64,000 nt of DNA from Methanobacteriota archaeon (GCA_018650285.1 JABIGF010000023.1:12091-76090), one strand, 5' to 3'. Numbered from the stretch's first letter, positions 32,416 to 38,256 are shown. Numbers and translations are program-made. Notes: a model not told the origin generated them from the letters alone.

Positions 32416-33189
32416 ATGGATGAATCACTAAATGGTGTTAAGGCGGTATTCCTTGACCTTGATGGAACAATCTATCTTGGTGGGAACTTAATTGATGGCT
32501 CTGTTGAATTTTTGAATCGGTGCGAAGAACGAGGCATTCAACGTTTCTTCTTATCAAATAATTCATCAAAATCGGTCACGGAGTATTTGGCAAAACTGAA
32601 TGGGCTTGGGATTCCTGCAGAAGCAAAGGATGTTTTACTTTCAACCCACGACCTACTCTCTTGGTTGGCTAAAGAAGGTGTTACTGAAACATACCTTGTG
32701 GGTACAGAAGGGATGCGTTCAATGCTAGAAGATGTTGGAATTTCAACGCGTAGTAGTGGACCACAATATGTGGTACTTGGCTATGATACTGAAATCAATT
32801 ATGAGAAGTTGACTACCGCTTCAATTCATCTTCACAATGGGGTGCCACTTGTTGCATCCCACCCTGATGTTGTCTGCCCTTCACCAGATGGTGGGCTTCC
32901 AGATGTTGGCGCATACCTTTCACTGTTTGAAGCGACTTGTGGAGTAAAGGCCAGTCACATTTGTGGTAAGCCGAACGCTGGAATGATATTACATAAAATT
33001 GAGGAATTAGGATTGCAACCTGCTGACTGTGCAATGGTTGGCGACCGCCTTTACACTGATATGGAAATGGCTGAAAGAGCGGGTGTTGTTGGCATTCTTG
33101 TTCTATCTGGGGAAGCTACGATGGAAGATGTGGAAAATGCAAAACAAAATCCAGACATCGTTGTAACATCTGTTAATGATTTATTGTGA
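32416..33189 (+). CDS. HAD-superfamily hydrolase, subfamily IIA (NagD/PNPase-like sugar phosphatase)
   Basis: Motif I FLDLDGTIY, motif II FLSNNSS, then GKP and motif IV GDRLYTDM. Confidence 0.8.
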   Translation: MDESLNGVKAVFLDLDGTIYLGGNLIDGSVEFLNRCEERGIQRFFLSNNSSKSVTEYLAKLNGLGIPAEAKDVLLSTHDLLSWLAKEGVTETYLVGTEGMRSMLEDVGISTRSSGPQYVVLGYDTEINYEKLTTASIHLHNGVPLVASHPDVVCPSPDGGLPDVGAYLSLFEATCGVKASHICGKPNAGMILHKIEELGLQPADCAMVGDRLYTDMEMAERAGVVGILVLSGEATMEDVENAKQNPDIVVTSVNDLL

Positions 33190-33211
33190 TTTTTCAATAG
33201 ACTGCGAGCCG

Positions 33212-33395
33212 GTTGCATGGGTAGGCAGTGTACTGGGGGACTGAACACCCATTGTACTCTTTCATAATCTCTTGAGGGGTTTGCAAGAACCCTTGCGATT
33301 TCACGGAAATGACATGTCGGTTGTCTGTATCAGCCCATGAGAGACGGTGTGAAATTTGGTTCAACACTTGAGGGTTTTCTGTTCATACCCTTGCG
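33212..33395 (+). repeat. Left inverted-repeat arm (IR-L)
   Basis: GTTGCATGGGTAGGCAGTGTACTGG...CTCTTGAGGGGTTTGCAAGAACCCTTGCGATTTCACGGAAATGACATGTCGGTTGTCTGTATCA...CATGAGAGACGGTGTGAAATTTGGTTCAACACTTGAGGG...ACCCTTGCG. It matches the reverse complement of IR-R with roughly 20 substitutions and no indels, by eye. Confidence 0.85.
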
Positions 33396-33479
33396 AGACA
33401 TTGGACATGATTTGTCCATAGTATGCTTCTGCGATTCAAGTCTGCTTAAACGTATAAGGAAGACGTGATTATTGAAGGT

Positions 33480-34250
33480 ATGACCGCAAAACGAAACAAG
33501 ACAATCGCCTACATCCGTGTCTCATCTCAAAGACAAGTCGATGAGGGTGTGAGTGTTGCCTCACAGAAAAGAATAATCACACAACTTGCAAGTTTCAAAA
33601 GTCTGAAAATAGAATCTGATGATTTCCTCATCGAGAAAGGAGTTAGTGCAGGGATTCCGTTGTGGGAAAGACCCAAGGGTCGGGTGTTGAAGAAAAAACT
33701 GCTATCAGGAGAATATGACAATCTCATTGTTATGAAGATAGATAGGTTGTTCAGAATCACATCTGATTTACTCTTCACTATTGAGGAATTAGATGATATG
33801 GGAATCAATCTACTCGTAGCAGATTTAGGTGGCGAAGCCATCGACACATCCACTACGATGGGAAAATTCATGCTCACCTTGTTTGGCGCAATTGCAGAAA
33901 TGGAACGTGGCCTCATTTCGGAAAGAACACAAGAAGGAATGGAGCAACTGAAGGCTCAAAACAAACGTTTCACAGATTCAATCTTTGGGTGGGATGTTGA
34001 CAAAAACGGTATGCTCAAACCGAATTGGTATGAACAGGACATCATTGATTGGATGTATTGGCAGGTCAATGTGAACGGGATGTCACAGGCATCTGTCGCT
34101 CGAAGTTTGAATTCAAGAGGAGTCAAGGGCAAACGCGGGGGGGAATGGCAGGGACAGTCTGTAAAGCGTACGATTGCCCATACATTCCACGCAAACAGAA
34201 AGGGTTTCCCTTATCCGAAGAATTGGGGTTCCATGCCTTGGCATCGATAA
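33480..34250 (+). CDS. Serine recombinase: resolvase/invertase catalytic domain plus a 'recombinase' domain, lacking the zinc-ribbon/coiled-coil of large serine integrases
   Basis: Catalytic motif AYIRVSSQRQ, then DNLIVMKIDRLFR and GAIAEMERGLISERTQEG. The C-terminal segment WYEQDIIDWMYWQ...GMSQASVARSLNSRGVKGKRGGEWQGQSVKRTI resembles the PF07508-type recombinase domain. The ORF track starts at GTG 33465. Confidence 0.85.
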   Translation: MTAKRNKTIAYIRVSSQRQVDEGVSVASQKRIITQLASFKSLKIESDDFLIEKGVSAGIPLWERPKGRVLKKKLLSGEYDNLIVMKIDRLFRITSDLLFTIEELDDMGINLLVADLGGEAIDTSTTMGKFMLTLFGAIAEMERGLISERTQEGMEQLKAQNKRFTDSIFGWDVDKNGMLKPNWYEQDIIDWMYWQVNVNGMSQASVARSLNSRGVKGKRGGEWQGQSVKRTIAHTFHANRKGFPYPKNWGSMPWHR

Positions 34251-34321
34251 CCCTGTGGAATCTTAGAATTAATCATTTACAATCCAGGAGTTAATATACT
34301 GTCGCTATTGCCAATACATGT

Positions 34322-35599
34322 ATGCGAAAGCCCACTTCCATCGATCTCTTCGCGGGTTGTGGTGGTTTGACACGTGGTCTTGAGTGGGCTGGGTATGAAT
34401 GTTTGGCATTTAATGAACTCAACAAAGATGCTGCCGACTCTTTCGCGGCTAATTTCCCAGAGGCAATTCGCCTTGATGGAGACATACGAAGTGCATTAAC
34501 AGATGAGGTAATCACCAAACAACTCCTTCCCCTCATTGATAAGAAAGGTGGACTTGACCTCCTTTGTGGTGGACCACCATGTCAGGGATACTCAGGAATC
34601 GGCCATCGCCGTACGCATAAATTGGAGAAGAAAGACATCCCTACAAACCATCTGTTCCTTGAGATGATAAGCGCGATTTCTCGTCTTCAACCAAGAGTAT
34701 TTCTGTTTGAGAATGTAGAAGGAATCCTAAGTGGCAAGTGGACGACCGATGGTGCGAAAGGAGAGATATTTCGTGATGTTTGGGAATCCTTCTCACAAAT
34801 AGAGGGATACGTGGTTCAGCCTACATTACTCCACGCATATGGATTCGGTGTTCCTCAAAACCGTCCGCGTGTGATGATTATGGGTGTCCGAGAAGAACTT
34901 CTGGAACACTGTGAATTCGAGCCTGTTGATTTCAACCCCAATACGAACAATCAATCCTATGCTTCTCAATTACGAAACAATGGTGGCTTCTTTCCTAGTT
35001 GGGATGAGAACAATATCAACGCCCCAGATTTAATTGATGTTCTCTCCGATCTTGACTTTGAAGGTTGGACTCCAGACAAACCGCATTATCGTAAAAAGCC
35101 CAAGACAGATTTCCAAAAATTCCTGCGAAATGAAGTACAGACAAATGGACGAGGTCGTCAAATTCTCACTGACCACGAGTTCTCCAACCACAAACCACAT
35201 GTAGTGGAGAGATTTCAGTATATGTTGGACAATAATGTGACTAAGAAAGCGGATTTGCCACCTCATATGCAGACGAGAAAATTCAACCAAAAACCCCTTC
35301 CAGCGCGCTGGCCCAACAAGCCTTCCATGACTGTGACCTCACTTCCTGATGACTATGTGCACTATCGGCGAGCAAGAACGTTCTCAGTTAGGGAATGGGC
35401 AAGATTGCAAACCTTCCCCGACAAGCACATCTTCTGTGGAAAGAGAACCACTGGGGGCGAAAGACGTGCTGGAAATCCTGCAGAAGGAAACTGGAATCGT
35501 GACGTCCCAAAGTATACCCAAATAGGGAATGCAGTACCTCCATTGCTTGGCAAGGCACTCGGTGAACAAATTGCCTTGATTCTACCAAGCCTTACGTAA
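34322..35599 (+). CDS. DNA (cytosine-5)-methyltransferase
   Basis: Motif I DLFAGCGGLTRG, motif IV GGPPCQGYS, motif VI ENV, motif VIII QNRPR, motif IX-X REWARLQTFPD ... GNAVPPLL. Confidence 0.95.
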   Translation: MRKPTSIDLFAGCGGLTRGLEWAGYECLAFNELNKDAADSFAANFPEAIRLDGDIRSALTDEVITKQLLPLIDKKGGLDLLCGGPPCQGYSGIGHRRTHKLEKKDIPTNHLFLEMISAISRLQPRVFLFENVEGILSGKWTTDGAKGEIFRDVWESFSQIEGYVVQPTLLHAYGFGVPQNRPRVMIMGVREELLEHCEFEPVDFNPNTNNQSYASQLRNNGGFFPSWDENNINAPDLIDVLSDLDFEGWTPDKPHYRKKPKTDFQKFLRNEVQTNGRGRQILTDHEFSNHKPHVVERFQYMLDNNVTKKADLPPHMQTRKFNQKPLPARWPNKPSMTVTSLPDDYVHYRRARTFSVREWARLQTFPDKHIFCGKRTTGGERRAGNPAEGNWNRDVPKYTQIGNAVPPLLGKALGEQIALILPSLT

Positions 35600-36418
35600 A
35601 TTTTCAAGTTCATTGAACCATTGTTGATATGTCATCAAAGTATCATGGTTGTTAAAGTGAGAAACTGCTTCAGGCAATACAACAAAACGGAAACCATTCT
35701 TTGTTGCATAATCGAGTCGGCCCTTGATGTTCTTCAGTTGACTCTCAAACTGTTTAGCCCCATGAGCAGTTGGCACACGTCTGAATGTATTTGGTTGCAA
35801 TTGTTGAATGGCCAATCTAACTCTGTCGTTAACAGTCGTCATGCAAGCACAAGTGACTGTGATGTTCGGATTCGCTCTGAGGTATGAGGTGTCAGCAGGG
35901 AAAAGAAAGTCGAGTCGTACTTGATTTAACCCTTGAACTTCCACTTGAGTCGCAAATTCAACTCCATATTCAAAGCCATGATCTTTCAACAAGAATTCCA
36001 ATTGAGCTTCGAGTGAACCCCCCGCTCTTGTTCGCCTCCCTTGGGCAAGAGAACTCTCCAGTATCGATAGCGCAGTCCAAACTTCAGAAGTGATGCCATC
36101 TACAGGAAATAAACTCTCAATCAATGGGTAACGTCCAGAGTGTTTCGCAACATATGTTTCACAATTTGATAGAAAAGTAGGCCCAGCATTTGAACTCTGC
36201 TCAAGGTAAATCTTGTACTCTTCTTCTAATAACCATCTCAACTTGTCATCAATCGTGCACTCTGACCAATCTTGAAGATAGAAATCTTTCTGAACACGGA
36301 TACGAATTTCGGGTGGATTTTCAATTCCAACATCAATATGTTTCAGAACCCCTCCCCTGTTTCCGAGAATTTCAGACTTCCAGTCCTCAAGGGCTGCCAT
36401 GTTACTCCCATAGACCAC
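35582..36418 (-). CDS. Putative type II restriction endonuclease partner of the C5-MTase
   Basis: It is convergent with the MTase and overlaps it by 18 nt at the 3' ends. 278 aa with no similarity to housekeeping families that I can see. The call is positional; specificity is unknown. An alternative ATG lies at 36400. Confidence 0.55.
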   Translation of the reverse strand: MVYGSNMAALEDWKSEILGNRGGVLKHIDVGIENPPEIRIRVQKDFYLQDWSECTIDDKLRWLLEEEYKIYLEQSSNAGPTFLSNCETYVAKHSGRYPLIESLFPVDGITSEVWTALSILESSLAQGRRTRAGGSLEAQLEFLLKDHGFEYGVEFATQVEVQGLNQVRLDFLFPADTSYLRANPNITVTCACMTTVNDRVRLAIQQLQPNTFRRVPTAHGAKQFESQLKNIKGRLDYATKNGFRFVVLPEAVSHFNNHDTLMTYQQWFNELENLRKAW

Positions 36419-36505
36419 TAAGTTCTCAATTTATCGCTTCAAATACCCTCTGTATTCCCTTAAGACAGGCATTCCACGCGACGGTACCCAACCATGAGTT
36501 TCTCA

Positions 36506-36534
36506 CGCAAGGGTGTACAAAGGGTTGCAGCAAG
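36506..36534 (-). promoter_or_regulatory. Internal copy of the CTTG-N17-CCCTTGCG module upstream of the endonuclease gene
   Basis: In gene orientation it reads CTTGCTGCAACCCTTTGTACACCCTTGCG. The modules inside both IR arms share its end motifs, and the inner (B) modules also share its N17 spacing. Confidence 0.4.
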
Positions 36535-36636
36535 TTGGGTTTAGACACACAAGCGCCTAGACGTTTGGACAGAGTCCGGACTGGAAAATCTGAACATAAC
36601 GATTGAATAACTACTTTCTACACGATGGCGAGGATG

Positions 36637-37020
36637 CTAATCCTTCTTATTCTGTTTACTTTTTTTAATATTTGAAACTATCTTTTCTATATTGTGGCCT
36701 ATGATAAATGTTAGAATCCCGATGGGAATTATAATACCATACCCTATTCCAAGCAAAAATGATGCTGCACCGCCTCGGTATGGGTTGAGAGGAATCCACC
36801 AATATACAACATCACACCATAACCCATCTTCCAAACACGGCTTTGCGGCTCCCACAAGGAGTGTAAATGCCCACCAAAGGAAGACTGAAACTCCTGAAAT
36901 TGACGCTATTGCCATGGATTTCTCTTTTATCTGATCTTCATTTTTTACTATCCAGTCATCAAGTCTGTCCCATAATCCCATATTTTCCATCTCCAATGTT
37001 CTTTTATTTATCCTTTTCAC
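36637..37020 (-). CDS. Small membrane protein (127 aa), unknown function
   Basis: Two or three TM helices (MAIASISGVSVFLWWAFTLLVGAA; ASFLLGIGYGIIIPIGILTFIIG) and a Lys-rich C-terminus. It overlaps the upstream small ORF by 17 nt. Confidence 0.5.
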   Translation of the reverse strand: MKRINKRTLEMENMGLWDRLDDWIVKNEDQIKEKSMAIASISGVSVFLWWAFTLLVGAAKPCLEDGLWCDVVYWWIPLNPYRGGAASFLLGIGYGIIIPIGILTFIIGHNIEKIVSNIKKSKQNKKD

Positions 37021-37240
37021 GGAAAATCATACTAAGAATTATCAATATAGTACCACCAATGAATAACCAACTGCTATATTCTTGGAATGGTTTTTCGCAG
37101 AATGCACTAAATCCGCCAATCTCTACTGCACATTTTTCATATAGTTCTGCAAAAAAACCTCCCATAATCAGTAAAAAACCAATTATTAAACCATTCTCCA
37201 ATGTAAACCTTCCAAGTGTCGGGAAGGTGTTAGCATTCAT
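37004..37240 (-). CDS. Small membrane protein (78 aa), unknown function
   Basis: Two TM helices (GLIIGFLLIMGGFFA; WLFIGGTILIILSMIF). It is the first gene of the two-gene unit reading inward from IR-R. Confidence 0.45.
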   Translation of the reverse strand: MNANTFPTLGRFTLENGLIIGFLLIMGGFFAELYEKCAVEIGGFSAFCEKPFQEYSSWLFIGGTILIILSMIFREKDK

Positions 37241-37344
37241 ATATAATGATTGTTAAAGCAATCCCAATTCCTCCCATGCCCGGTCATCTCATGGAGTGGA
37301 CTCGGTCTTGCGTCTACTCTCTGACTTGGCCCAGTGTCTGGAAG

Positions 37345-37528
37345 CACAAGGGTCTGAACAGAATGCCTTCAAGTCTTGAACCAAAATTCACACCGTCTCT
37401 CATGTGTTGATACAGACAACCGACATATCATTTCCATGAAATCGCAAGGGTTCTCTCAAACCCCTCAAGAGATTATGGAGGAGTACAGTGGGCTTTCAAT
37501 CGGCCAGTACACTGCCTACCCATTCAAC
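37345..37528 (-). repeat. Right inverted-repeat arm (IR-R)
   Basis: Reverse complement of the IR-L sequence; see IR-L. Confidence 0.85.
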
Positions 37529-37665
37529 TGTCTAATGAGGTAAAGAATTGGCACCAATTGTTCTTCATCTCTTGCCTCTTCGGTTCTTGTCTTTGTCTCC
37601 GTCGATAATTTGTTTCTTTATTTCGTTTATTTTTTCCTCTACCGCTACCCCTATACGGCCGGCCT

Positions 37666-38256
37666 TCAAAGCGATAACAATACCCACCAATATGAATATC
37701 CCAGGACTAATTTAGGACCAAATACTTCGAATATCATTCTGTATGTTAAACCAGGATAAACGTCTATTTCAGACGGGTCATCAGGGTTGTATGCAACCGA
37801 TTCCAAGTTTAGGTAATATTCGCTATCATGCAAGCATTGGGTTTCCCACGGATCCACATTTCCAGAACCTCCCTGTGTTTGTTCCGACGCTCCATGCACA
37901 TTGAAGTCACAACTGAAGGTAGAATTGTACTCAACGCCATCAACAGAATAATTGTAGAAGAATATTTGTTCGCCCTCATCCGCAGTATAATCTTGGCCGA
38001 TTGCTAGAACCTCGGTTTCGGTCCAATCCTTTGAGTCCCATTCGTCTATGACATAAAATCCACCAAAAAGGGCAACAGCGCCGATTGACAATATAATGAC
38101 AAACAAACCAATCATGACGAAAATTATTGGTGGCACATTCCCAACAGCAGGTTTTGGTTCAGTTTCTGAGCCATTACCACTAATCATGATACAACCCGCG
38201 GGCCCATCCATTATTATCTCTCCATTAAATCCCATAAGTTGGGTAATGTTTTTCAT
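37666..38256 (-). CDS. Hypothetical membrane protein (TM - beta-rich ectodomain - C-terminal hydrophobic segment; possibly DUF3592-like)
   Basis: The TM PPIIFVMIGLFVIILSIGAVALFGGFYVI is followed by W.ETEV....Y....G...FFYNYSVDGVEYNS, which recalls DUF3592. This is a weak call. Confidence 0.45.
   Translation of the reverse strand: MKNITQLMGFNGEIIMDGPAGCIMISGNGSETEPKPAVGNVPPIIFVMIGLFVIILSIGAVALFGGFYVIDEWDSKDWTETEVLAIGQDYTADEGEQIFFYNYSVDGVEYNSTFSCDFNVHGASEQTQGGSGNVDPWETQCLHDSEYYLNLESVAYNPDDPSEIDVYPGLTYRMIFEVFGPKLVLGYSYWWVLLSL

Follow-up and report, generated by a model that had tools for sequence, protein, structure and literature searches.

Two single-arm cassettes joined at TA dinucleotides in a Poseidoniales chromosomal hotspot: a probable serine-recombinase cassette system with an integron-like organisation

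The DNA analysed here is a stretch of 64,000 nucleotides (nt) from a Methanobacteriota archaeon (GCA_018650285.1, JABIGF010000023.1:12091-76090), referred to below as the window, and our subject is a 4.3-kb segment of it that carries a serine recombinase gene and lies between a HAD phosphatase gene and the PhoX neighbourhood. A repeat search of the window found an inverted repeat at the ends of this segment, with arms at 33207-33393 and 37347-37533 that are 187 nt long, 88% complementary and 3953 nt apart. The arms align without gaps with 23 mismatches, in agreement with the initial annotation of the sequence, which had given about 184 nt and roughly 20 substitutions. BLASTN aligned one arm with the other over 182 nt at 88.5% identity (E ~1e-62), and no third copy was found by BLASTN in the 64-kb window.

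On the plus strand between the arms are the serine recombinase gene (33465-34250; PF00239, E 8e-32, with a weak PF07508 match; 261 amino acids (aa) from a GTG start) and a C5 cytosine DNA methyltransferase gene (34322-35599; PF00145, E 4e-57; TIGR00675 dcm). The minus strand carries a candidate restriction endonuclease of the EcoRII C-terminal catalytic-domain family (35582-36418), convergent with the methyltransferase gene and overlapping it by 18 nt, and two open reading frames (ORFs) for predicted membrane proteins of 127 aa (36637-37020) and 78 aa (37004-37240), neither of which has a Pfam or NCBIfam match. The methyltransferase and the endonuclease candidate would form an adjacent type II restriction-modification (R-M) pair, of which the methyltransferase is clear and the endonuclease is proposed on one modest match to PF09019 (31.1 bits against a cutoff of 25, residues 120-202), its sole family match; NCBIfam had none for it. 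No nucleotide match was found for the methyltransferase in any related locus, or for the 127-aa ORF in related loci. Both flanking genes are convergent and end facing the segment, with the stop codon of the HAD phosphatase at 33189 and that of a 196-aa gene on the PhoX side at 37666. A Pfam search confirmed the gene content between the arms and the ordinary chromosomal nature of the flanks, both noted earlier.

Two other identities for the arms were considered and rejected. They are not RNA genes, as there was no Rfam or tRNA match and their folding energies do not stand out from those of shuffles (z from -0.9 to +0.2). Both arms are traversed by an outward-reading ORF of 55-57 aa; a coding or pseudogene origin was rejected because there is no Pfam match and no codon periodicity, the 23 mismatches being spread over the codon phases as 9/8/6 and the variability of 102 arm copies (among the metagenome matches listed) having no 3-nt periodicity.

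The limits of the inserted DNA are set by 19 contigs of the same species from other metagenomes, found via the exact HAD and PhoX proteins (nine for the left side and ten for the right). The nine left-side contigs all match the window at 100% identity as far as 33223/33224. Past the TA at 33222-33223, which is the homology breakpoint with contigs L001-L008, L009 continues like the window, L001 and L005 enter an arm of ~100 nt from a second sequence family (family 2; the window arms belong to family 1) followed by a related recombinase (63%), and L002-L004, L006 and L007 read CCCATGCGAAGG... and then a gene for a 94-aa membrane protein, while L008 ends exactly at the TA. On the PhoX side the breakpoint is the TA at 37517-37518: nine of the ten contigs are 99.7-100% identical to the window from 37516 onward and different before it, and the tenth, L014, has the window arrangement throughout. 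In L012 and L013, other cassettes stand beside the one with the 94-aa gene and are again joined to it at TA. The inserted DNA is 33224-37516, with a TA at each side, and each TA is a probable 2-nt crossover. A lack of heterogeneity had been put forward beforehand as the sign of an immobile region; the population varies exactly at the repeat ends. L009 and L014, from sample ERZ4200983, are the only independent copy of the window arrangement, in the same orientation.

Outside the two TAs lie chromosomal half-sites, which we call B0 (GGTTGCATGGG, 33211-33221, plus strand, downstream of the HAD phosphatase stop codon) and B0' (CCCATTCAACTG, 37519-37530, plus strand). B0' is an inverted copy of B0, so that the ends read GGTTGCATGGG-TA on the left and TA-CCCATTCAACTG on the right, and B0-TA-B0' would make the near-palindrome GTTGCATGGG-TA-CCCATTCAAC. 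The outer ~12-17 nt of each arm are these half-sites, and not part of the insert as first annotated.

Two other occupants of the site were observed. A 513-nt cassette with the 94-aa membrane-protein gene and a degenerate family-2-like arm (L002 10809-11319; L012 694-1199; L013, L015, L017, L019) is the commonest occupant in the population, being present in eight of the ten right-side contigs, and is absent from the window. The element of other strains at the same TA (L001 10807-11426, L005, L013 1-122) has inverted family-2 arms and a recombinase ~63% identical to that of the window, therefore two lineages of recombinase and arm use one chromosomal site.

The initial annotation had raised the possibility that the whole segment is invertible. 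In a switch of the Hin/Gin type, the recombinase would flip the 4.3 kb between the inverted arms and alter expression; a serine recombinase gene does lie between two inverted sites here, and the symmetry of TA makes inversion chemically possible. However, as both flanking genes end facing the segment there is nothing outside to be switched, and no inverted arrangement, with the HAD flank joined to the right-arm variant (GTACTGGCCGATTGAAAGCCC), was seen. The variants in the population are replacements and not changes of orientation, the independent copy is oriented as in the window, the arms have diverged by 12%, and elsewhere the same arms stand mostly in direct arrays. Such a switch is hardly credible.

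Between the outer TAs, two cassettes with one arm each lie in opposite orientation and meet at a third TA (36485-36486). From left to right, the layout is B0, TA, the left arm, recombinase, methyltransferase, endonuclease and a tail, TA, a tail in reverse complement, the 127-aa and 78-aa genes and the right arm in reverse complement, TA and B0'. Cassette A (33224-36484, plus strand) starts with its arm, the long form of family 1 (33224-33395, plus strand), upstream of the recombinase gene; this arm contains the inverted motif pairs GAGGGGT..ACCCTTGCG (33274-33297) and GAGGGTT..ACCCTTGCG (33370-33395). It ends with a tail (ATACCCTCTGTATTCCCTTAAGACAGGCATTCCACGCGACGG, 36444-36484, plus strand) that has CCCTC at -39 and CCCTT at -28 from the TA, an architecture seen also in the tails of L188, L028, L020, L021 and L023. 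Cassette B (36487-37516, minus strand) comprises an arm of a family 1 variant (GTACTGGCCGATTGAAAGCCCAC, 37347-37516, minus strand) that is also present in L137, L139, L175 and L184, the two small membrane-protein genes, and a tail (AACCCTTTGTACACCCTTGCGTGAGAAACTCATGGTTGGG-TA as reverse complement, 36487-36526, minus strand) that is 85-98% identical to tails in L012, L133, L171, L185 and L080 and of the same family as tails in L120 and L141.

The internal TA lies in a tail-TA-tail junction that is attB-like, and it is at this TA that homology with L012 starts. Window positions 36487-36533 are 92% identical to L012 18-66, and the stretch that precedes the shared tail is an arm end in L012 (CACTGCC-TA-CCCACTC...) and GCGACGG-TA in the window, so the junction is common to the two on the tail side only. 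As the cassettes lie tail to tail and the same arm is present in each, the two arm copies face outward and form the 187-nt inverted repeat. If cassettes insert in either orientation into a tail-TA-tail site, exactly one such junction is expected between any two arms that face each other in plus and minus orientation, and it was found at all seven loci examined (window 36485, L028 12040, L020 17426, L021 7764, L023 17454, L124 5726 and L104 2696). The inverted arm pairs of L020, L021, L023 and L028 are therefore two-cassette structures like that of the window. The earlier view of a single unit between terminal inverted repeats does not hold for a segment with an internal tail-TA-tail site; the accompanying remark that the outer GCATGGGTA resembles the inverted inner CGCAAGGGTA was correct, and the resemblance reflects a half-site motif, RAGGGT/ACCCTY, that recurs. 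A third arm at 36419-36485, upstream of the endonuclease gene, was considered and rejected, since comparison with L028 and L188 identified the stretch as a forward tail.

An alternative is that the whole 4.3 kb is one element of a large serine recombinase, with the arms as P and P' of a very long attP and GTTGCATGGG-TA-CCCATTCAAC as attB. The inverse relationship of B0 and B0' would fit this, as would the recurrence of inverted arm pairs that enclose the recombinase at a spacing of 3.8-9.3 kb (L020, L021, L023, L028), the attB-like palindromes in L002 (GCATGGGTACCCATGC) and L035 (TTGGATGGGTACCCATCCAA), attP-like arm-TA-arm junctions (L035 position 486, L033, and 22 of the 126 junctions listed) and a modelled recombinase structure that is closest to large serine recombinases. 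The element would have integrated as a unit and would excise as one, and the internal tail-TA-tail would be a feature of the cargo or a secondary attB. Single-arm cassettes with a tail are the majority and form direct arrays free of recombinase (L183, L165, L104, L012), and the tail of cassette B and its junction are common to L012, where the arrangement is different. Large serine recombinases tell attP from attB by a zinc-ribbon/coiled-coil domain, which the protein in the window lacks, and the empty attB was not found in the Joint Genome Institute (JGI) metagenomes. A single element would use the same recombination chemistry; we consider it unlikely.

The two-cassette structure is one case of a wider family. 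At least 120 contigs of the JGI metagenomes, which are marine, contain the arm core, and the cassettes take the form of a TA, a highly conserved arm of ~100-190 nt, the cargo, a tail of ~45 nt and a TA. Among the matches listed, to which the counts in this paragraph refer, the 102 unique arm copies are conserved at ~90% over ~100 nt after the TA, with an abrupt onset at the TA, and 124 of the 126 unique arm junctions have their TA at one and the same offset. The sequence outside this TA is a tail in 104 of the junctions and an inverted arm in 22. Only 3 of 80 evaluable arms stand before a recombinase, and 171 ORFs near arms fell into 143 clusters in which DNA methylases were the sole recurrent Pfam family. 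Direct arrays of cassettes were found in L165, L183, L104, L124 and L012. Other cargo beside the same arms, which the initial annotation had suggested looking for, was found in metagenome contigs.

The two ends of a cassette are built differently. In the tails, of ~45 nt, GGG or CGG immediately precedes the TA and CCCTY is 5.6-fold enriched, with positional peaks at -28 and -39 from the TA. The arms are sharp-ended at the TA and fuzzy on the inner side and have no matching terminal inverted repeat. The arm family tracks the recombinase clade, family 1 occurring with the clade of at least 74% identity and family 2 with that of 56-65%. The left arm is 84-89% identical to arms of other lineages, compared with 74-77% for the recombinase coding sequence (CDS), and this better conservation of the arms points to selection on the site itself.

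The high copy number and the many copies without an adjacent recombinase could also suggest that the arms are passive repeats, either miniature inverted-repeat transposable elements (MITEs) or repetitive extragenic palindromes, or the ends of non-autonomous DDE or HUH elements that target TA; homologous recombination or another enzyme would then move them, with the recombinase as a passenger. The TA on both sides resembles a target duplication of the Tc1/mariner type, and there are small palindromes in the tails as in IS200/IS605 ends. However, the start of an arm and the end of a tail do not form an inverted repeat, the arm has a sharp end at the TA only, and exchange falls exactly at the TA even between variants that differ from the first base (L087 versus L139). 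What B0 meets across its TA may be an arm of family 1, an arm of family 2 or a tail, and arm families follow the recombinase clades. No DDE, HUH or tyrosine enzyme is encoded by any of the five elements that are completely covered, in line with the absence of a transposase first noted in the window. Passive repeats are very improbable. Of the earlier suggestion that two MITE-like copies had trapped an R-M module, the abundance of the family and its general lack of an adjacent recombinase stand, while the copies are one-sided recombination sites and not MITEs.

Several observations touch on individual contigs of this family. Contig ends are often at, or within ~100 nt of, a TA (the ends of L001-L008 and about 50 of the 130 arms listed), and contigs bearing the recombinase are mostly 1-3 kb. 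In L137 (reverse strand, 1-82), a family-1 arm stub of ~40 nt is head to head with a full arm across a TA, possibly as the truncated remnant of an aberrant event. The 8.2-kb contig L035 (CAYMMZ010000034.1; sites at ~45-64, 486 and 8206) is binned as Woesearchaeota and is probably mis-binned, because it carries a recombinase cassette of the Poseidoniales type; it contains the perfect palindromic sequence TTGGATGGGTACCCATCCAA, which looks like an empty site, and head-to-head family-2 arms (GTTCGC-TA-GCGAAC).

The recombinase itself has an unusual composition. Its homologues start at the second methionine, which makes ATG 33480 the probable true start of a 256-aa protein. The superfamily is marked by an N-terminal catalytic domain that has its serine nucleophile in a YxRVS(S/T)xxQ motif and conserved D-R..R residues. 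PF00239 covers residues 14-167, the motifs YIRVSSQRQ and DRLFR are intact and invariant across 12 homologues, and the catalytic domain matches gamma-delta and Tn3 resolvases and invertases including Gin at E 1e-11 to 1e-12. The C-terminal ~95 aa are of the recombinase-domain type of large serine recombinases: PF07508 matches at 23.2 bits (cutoff 21.1) over residues 190-240 only, which align with the first half of its profile. In NCBIfam the top-scoring profile was CcrB, aligned over its N-terminal half (positions 5-245 of 542) at 77 bits where the cutoff is 900, and the top Foldseek matches of a moderate model (pLDDT 66) are Bxb1, phiC31 and other large serine recombinases over 250-270 columns. 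The zinc ribbon and coiled coil are absent and the protein ends at residue 261, whereas large serine recombinases have 400-700 aa. Pfam and the homologue alignment thus uphold the domain composition first proposed, and a placement among small or large serine recombinases by PF00239 and PF07508 comes out mixed: the domains are those of the large type, in a protein of half the size without zinc ribbon or coiled coil. The IS607 profile NF033518 scored 23.8 bits against a cutoff of 110.

There were 795 homologues at E <1e-10, mostly of 255-269 aa. Among the 45 genome loci recovered from data with one genome per species, every relative of at least 47% identity is from a marine archaeon, with the label Poseidoniales, Poseidoniaceae, Poseidonia or Thalassarchaeum in nearly all cases, and bacterial relatives are at most 36% identical. 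The bacterial relatives L052-L061 (Skermanella, Azospirillum, Planctomycetota, Desulfovibrionaceae and others; 226-263 aa, 28-36% identity) match through the catalytic and recombinase-domain regions, therefore the short form of large serine recombinase is not confined to archaea. An exact-protein look-up had no record of the window recombinase. In IMG/VR neither the arm core nor a recombinase relative above 39% identity was found, and a virus or plasmid origin was rejected because the arm core is absent there and there was no BLASTN match in phage and plasmid collections.

The cassettes are mobile. The interiors of recombinase cassettes are 98-100% identical in five unrelated outside contexts (L020, L021, L022, L023, L125), with neighbourhoods that include riboflavin genes, giant surface proteins and A-type ATPase, and a cassette of the window type is 94% identical to that of L189 in another context. 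The cargo varies: a putative type II C5 R-M system in the window, an N6/N4 methylase in L189 (2551-3279) and L125 (1459-4582), a complete type I R-M system with HsdM, HsdS and HsdR in L030 (3328-7875), Wadjet-like MksE/MksF with PIN7 in L021 and L023-L026 and in the same layout in L035, and membrane proteins in L028 and L029. R-M is therefore recurrent cargo, but of different types. The first proposal for this segment, an undescribed R-M cassette mobilised by a serine recombinase, is supported in substance, given the heterogeneity at the ends and the presence of the same block elsewhere with other cargo.

Among the cargo genes, a Wadjet/Mks-like set of four (DUF7281, a DUF3584/MksF-like protein, MksE and a protein of ~410 aa) accompanies a 74-77% identical recombinase CDS in L021 (1113-7395), L023-L026 (for example L023 10780-17086) and L035 (1571-7862, from ORF sizes only). 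Cassettes whose cargo otherwise differs share, near the tail, a pair of genes for PIN7 and an 84-aa protein (L020 16501-17059, L021 6447-7395, L023 16134-17086, and L035 6907-7862 by ORF size only). Its role could be that of an addiction module of the toxin-antitoxin kind, or of a factor accessory to recombination.

Taken together, we read the region as a hotspot between the HAD phosphatase and the PhoX-neighbourhood genes of a Poseidoniales archaeon, holding two mobile cassettes that are exchanged at TA by the recombinase, and we give this reading a probability of about 65%. A 2-nt crossover without target duplication is a hallmark of serine recombinases, and conservative exchange at TA by the encoded enzyme is the most likely mechanism. 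The recombinase would bind the repeated RAGGGT/ACCCTY motifs in arms and tails, which are plausible binding sites reminiscent of res subsites. Two sites would be synapsed and cut with a 2-nt stagger at the central TA, followed by a strand exchange that would be conservative and leave no target duplication. A tail-TA-tail (attB-like) site would accept cassettes in either orientation, and cassettes would also be excised, presumably as circular intermediates, or replaced. As TA is self-complementary, sites could join in either alignment and hence cassettes could enter in either orientation; all four half-site combinations (tail/arm, arm/tail, tail/tail and arm/arm) were observed, as expected from a palindromic TA.

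Several points weigh against this reading. Known serine recombinases cut the centre of a pseudo-palindrome bound by a dimer, and in most junctions what lies left and right of the TA (GGG-TA-GGCAGTG) is not alike. The ~90% conservation of the arms is partly imposed, in their first 34 nt, by the search pattern with which they were collected. Near-identical recombinase cassettes diverge in cargo from the stop codon of the recombinase onward, and no TA, tail or arm site is visible at that stop codon; a second exchange process must therefore exist for the swap of cargo there. The fully empty site (GGTTGCATGGGTACCCATTCAACTG), in which both flanks would be joined directly as the initial annotation had envisaged, was not found in the JGI metagenomes by an exact 25-mer search, and no circular or excised forms were recognised by terminal overlaps among the ~120 contigs fetched. 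In the window the end of homology at the stop codon falls within 34247-34322, and equivalents are seen in L020-L030, L125 and L189.

The organisation described here is best compared with that of integrons, a likeness of organisation and not of homology. In both there are arrays of small, very diverse cassettes with one recombination site each, most of them without a recombinase, the array is at a fixed chromosomal place beside the recombinase, defence genes are among the cargo, and assemblies break at the sites. The integron enzyme is the tyrosine recombinase IntI, whereas a serine recombinase is the only recombinase in the arrays of the window family. The integron attC is a single-stranded hairpin defined by structure, in contrast to the putatively double-stranded, bipartite tail-TA-arm site with its ~90% sequence-conserved arm. 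Here, in addition, the recombinase gene is itself on a mobile cassette, cassettes are in both orientations around an internal attB-like site, and the host is archaeal.

Staphylococcal cassette chromosome (SCC) elements (CcrAB/CcrC, rlmH) are similar in other respects, as they use a serine recombinase and one chromosomal site, form tandem composite arrays by repeated insertion, include non-autonomous cassettes and carry R-M and other accessory cargo; CcrB was also the best NCBIfam match, far below its cutoff. They differ in that the window recombinase is half-size and has no zinc-ribbon/coiled-coil domain, its sites are 100-190 nt instead of ~30-50 bp, its TA is palindromic and used in both orientations, and its cassettes are mostly 1-9 kb. 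Large serine recombinases in general, such as phage integrases, CcrAB, TnpX and XisF, act on attP and attB sites of ~40-50 bp with a non-palindromic dinucleotide that sets polarity, unlike the ~100-190-nt arms and palindromic TA found here.

Resolvase/res systems (Tn3/gamma-delta res, Sin resH, beta six and the Tn552 invertible segment) also have a small serine recombinase beside a site of ~100-200 nt, a crossover dinucleotide at the gene-distal end of the site, half-site motifs at varied spacing and a homologous catalytic domain. Here, the subsites are putative, the C-terminal part is a recombinase domain and not a helix-turn-helix (HTH) of ~40 aa, there is no DDE transposase partner, and cassettes are inserted and replaced in many contexts, whereas the resolvases resolve cointegrates. 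The small resolvases and invertases such as Hin and Gin have ~180-200 aa and act on two identical sites in a fixed orientation on one molecule, unlike the direct and inverted arrangements in several contexts seen here. In the IS607 family, which lacks long terminal repeats, a MerR-like HTH precedes the catalytic domain, which is N-terminal in the window protein. Tn3, other DDE transposons and MITEs have matching terminal inverted repeats and a target-site duplication; the arm and the tail that end each cassette here are unrelated, and neighbours share a single TA.

Charybdis elements are circular and virus-like, have a conserved structural module of ~10 genes and were described from viromes (bioRxiv 10.1101/2025.08.03.668216). 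They share Poseidoniales hosts, a size of ~4.6 kb and methyltransferase genes with the present segment, and some copies are integrated with an integrase or recombinase (bioRxiv 10.1101/2025.08.03.668216). A link was rejected owing to their different gene content and occurrence in viromes and the lack of the structural module in the window cassette.

No description of such a system was found in full-text literature on serine recombinases, Poseidoniales/Marine Group II and integron-like cassettes. An integron-like system of swappable cassettes bounded by a conserved recombination site probably occurs across the Marine Group II archaea of the ocean, and it is previously undescribed in the literature searched. 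More tentatively, and with slightly less than even odds, the system could be the Poseidoniales serine-recombinase counterpart of the integron, by which cassettes are captured, shuffled and exchanged, with bipartite tail-TA-arm sites, autonomous cassettes that encode a minimal recombinase of catalytic and recombinase domains, and arrays that serve as fast-turnover banks of defence and surface-protein genes. The contents of such banks, suggested with the same reserve, would be R-M systems of types I and II, Wadjet-like systems, PIN toxins and surface or membrane proteins. The symmetric TA could then allow one enzyme without the coiled-coil directionality domain to insert, excise, invert and replace cassettes.

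The uncultured Marine Group II rank with the most abundant archaea of the plankton, and their genomic islands and defence repertoires are known mostly as hypervariable regions at which assemblies break. The TA sites are a systematic cause of assembly breaks in Poseidoniales metagenome-assembled genomes (MAGs), and these breaks gain a concrete basis in a defined site of arm, TA and tail, a candidate enzyme and a rule that predicted the junction positions at seven independent loci. The arm, TA and tail can also be used as a practical marker by MAG builders in resolving islands. If the mechanism holds, this would be, to our knowledge, the first cassette array driven by a serine recombinase and the first in archaea without IntI, and it would reveal a route by which R-M and Wadjet-like systems pass from strain to strain in an uncultured ocean lineage. 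A very small (~257 aa) enzyme of the large-serine-recombinase type with long, sequence-defined sites could, in that case, be of interest for genome engineering.

A further observation concerns the flank on the PhoX side. The product of the 196-aa membrane-protein ORF (37666-38256, minus strand) has no record in the exact-protein look-up, and gene calls on other contigs of this species give it 215, 223 or 181 aa. Judging by these calls, the N-terminus of the protein appears to vary between strains.

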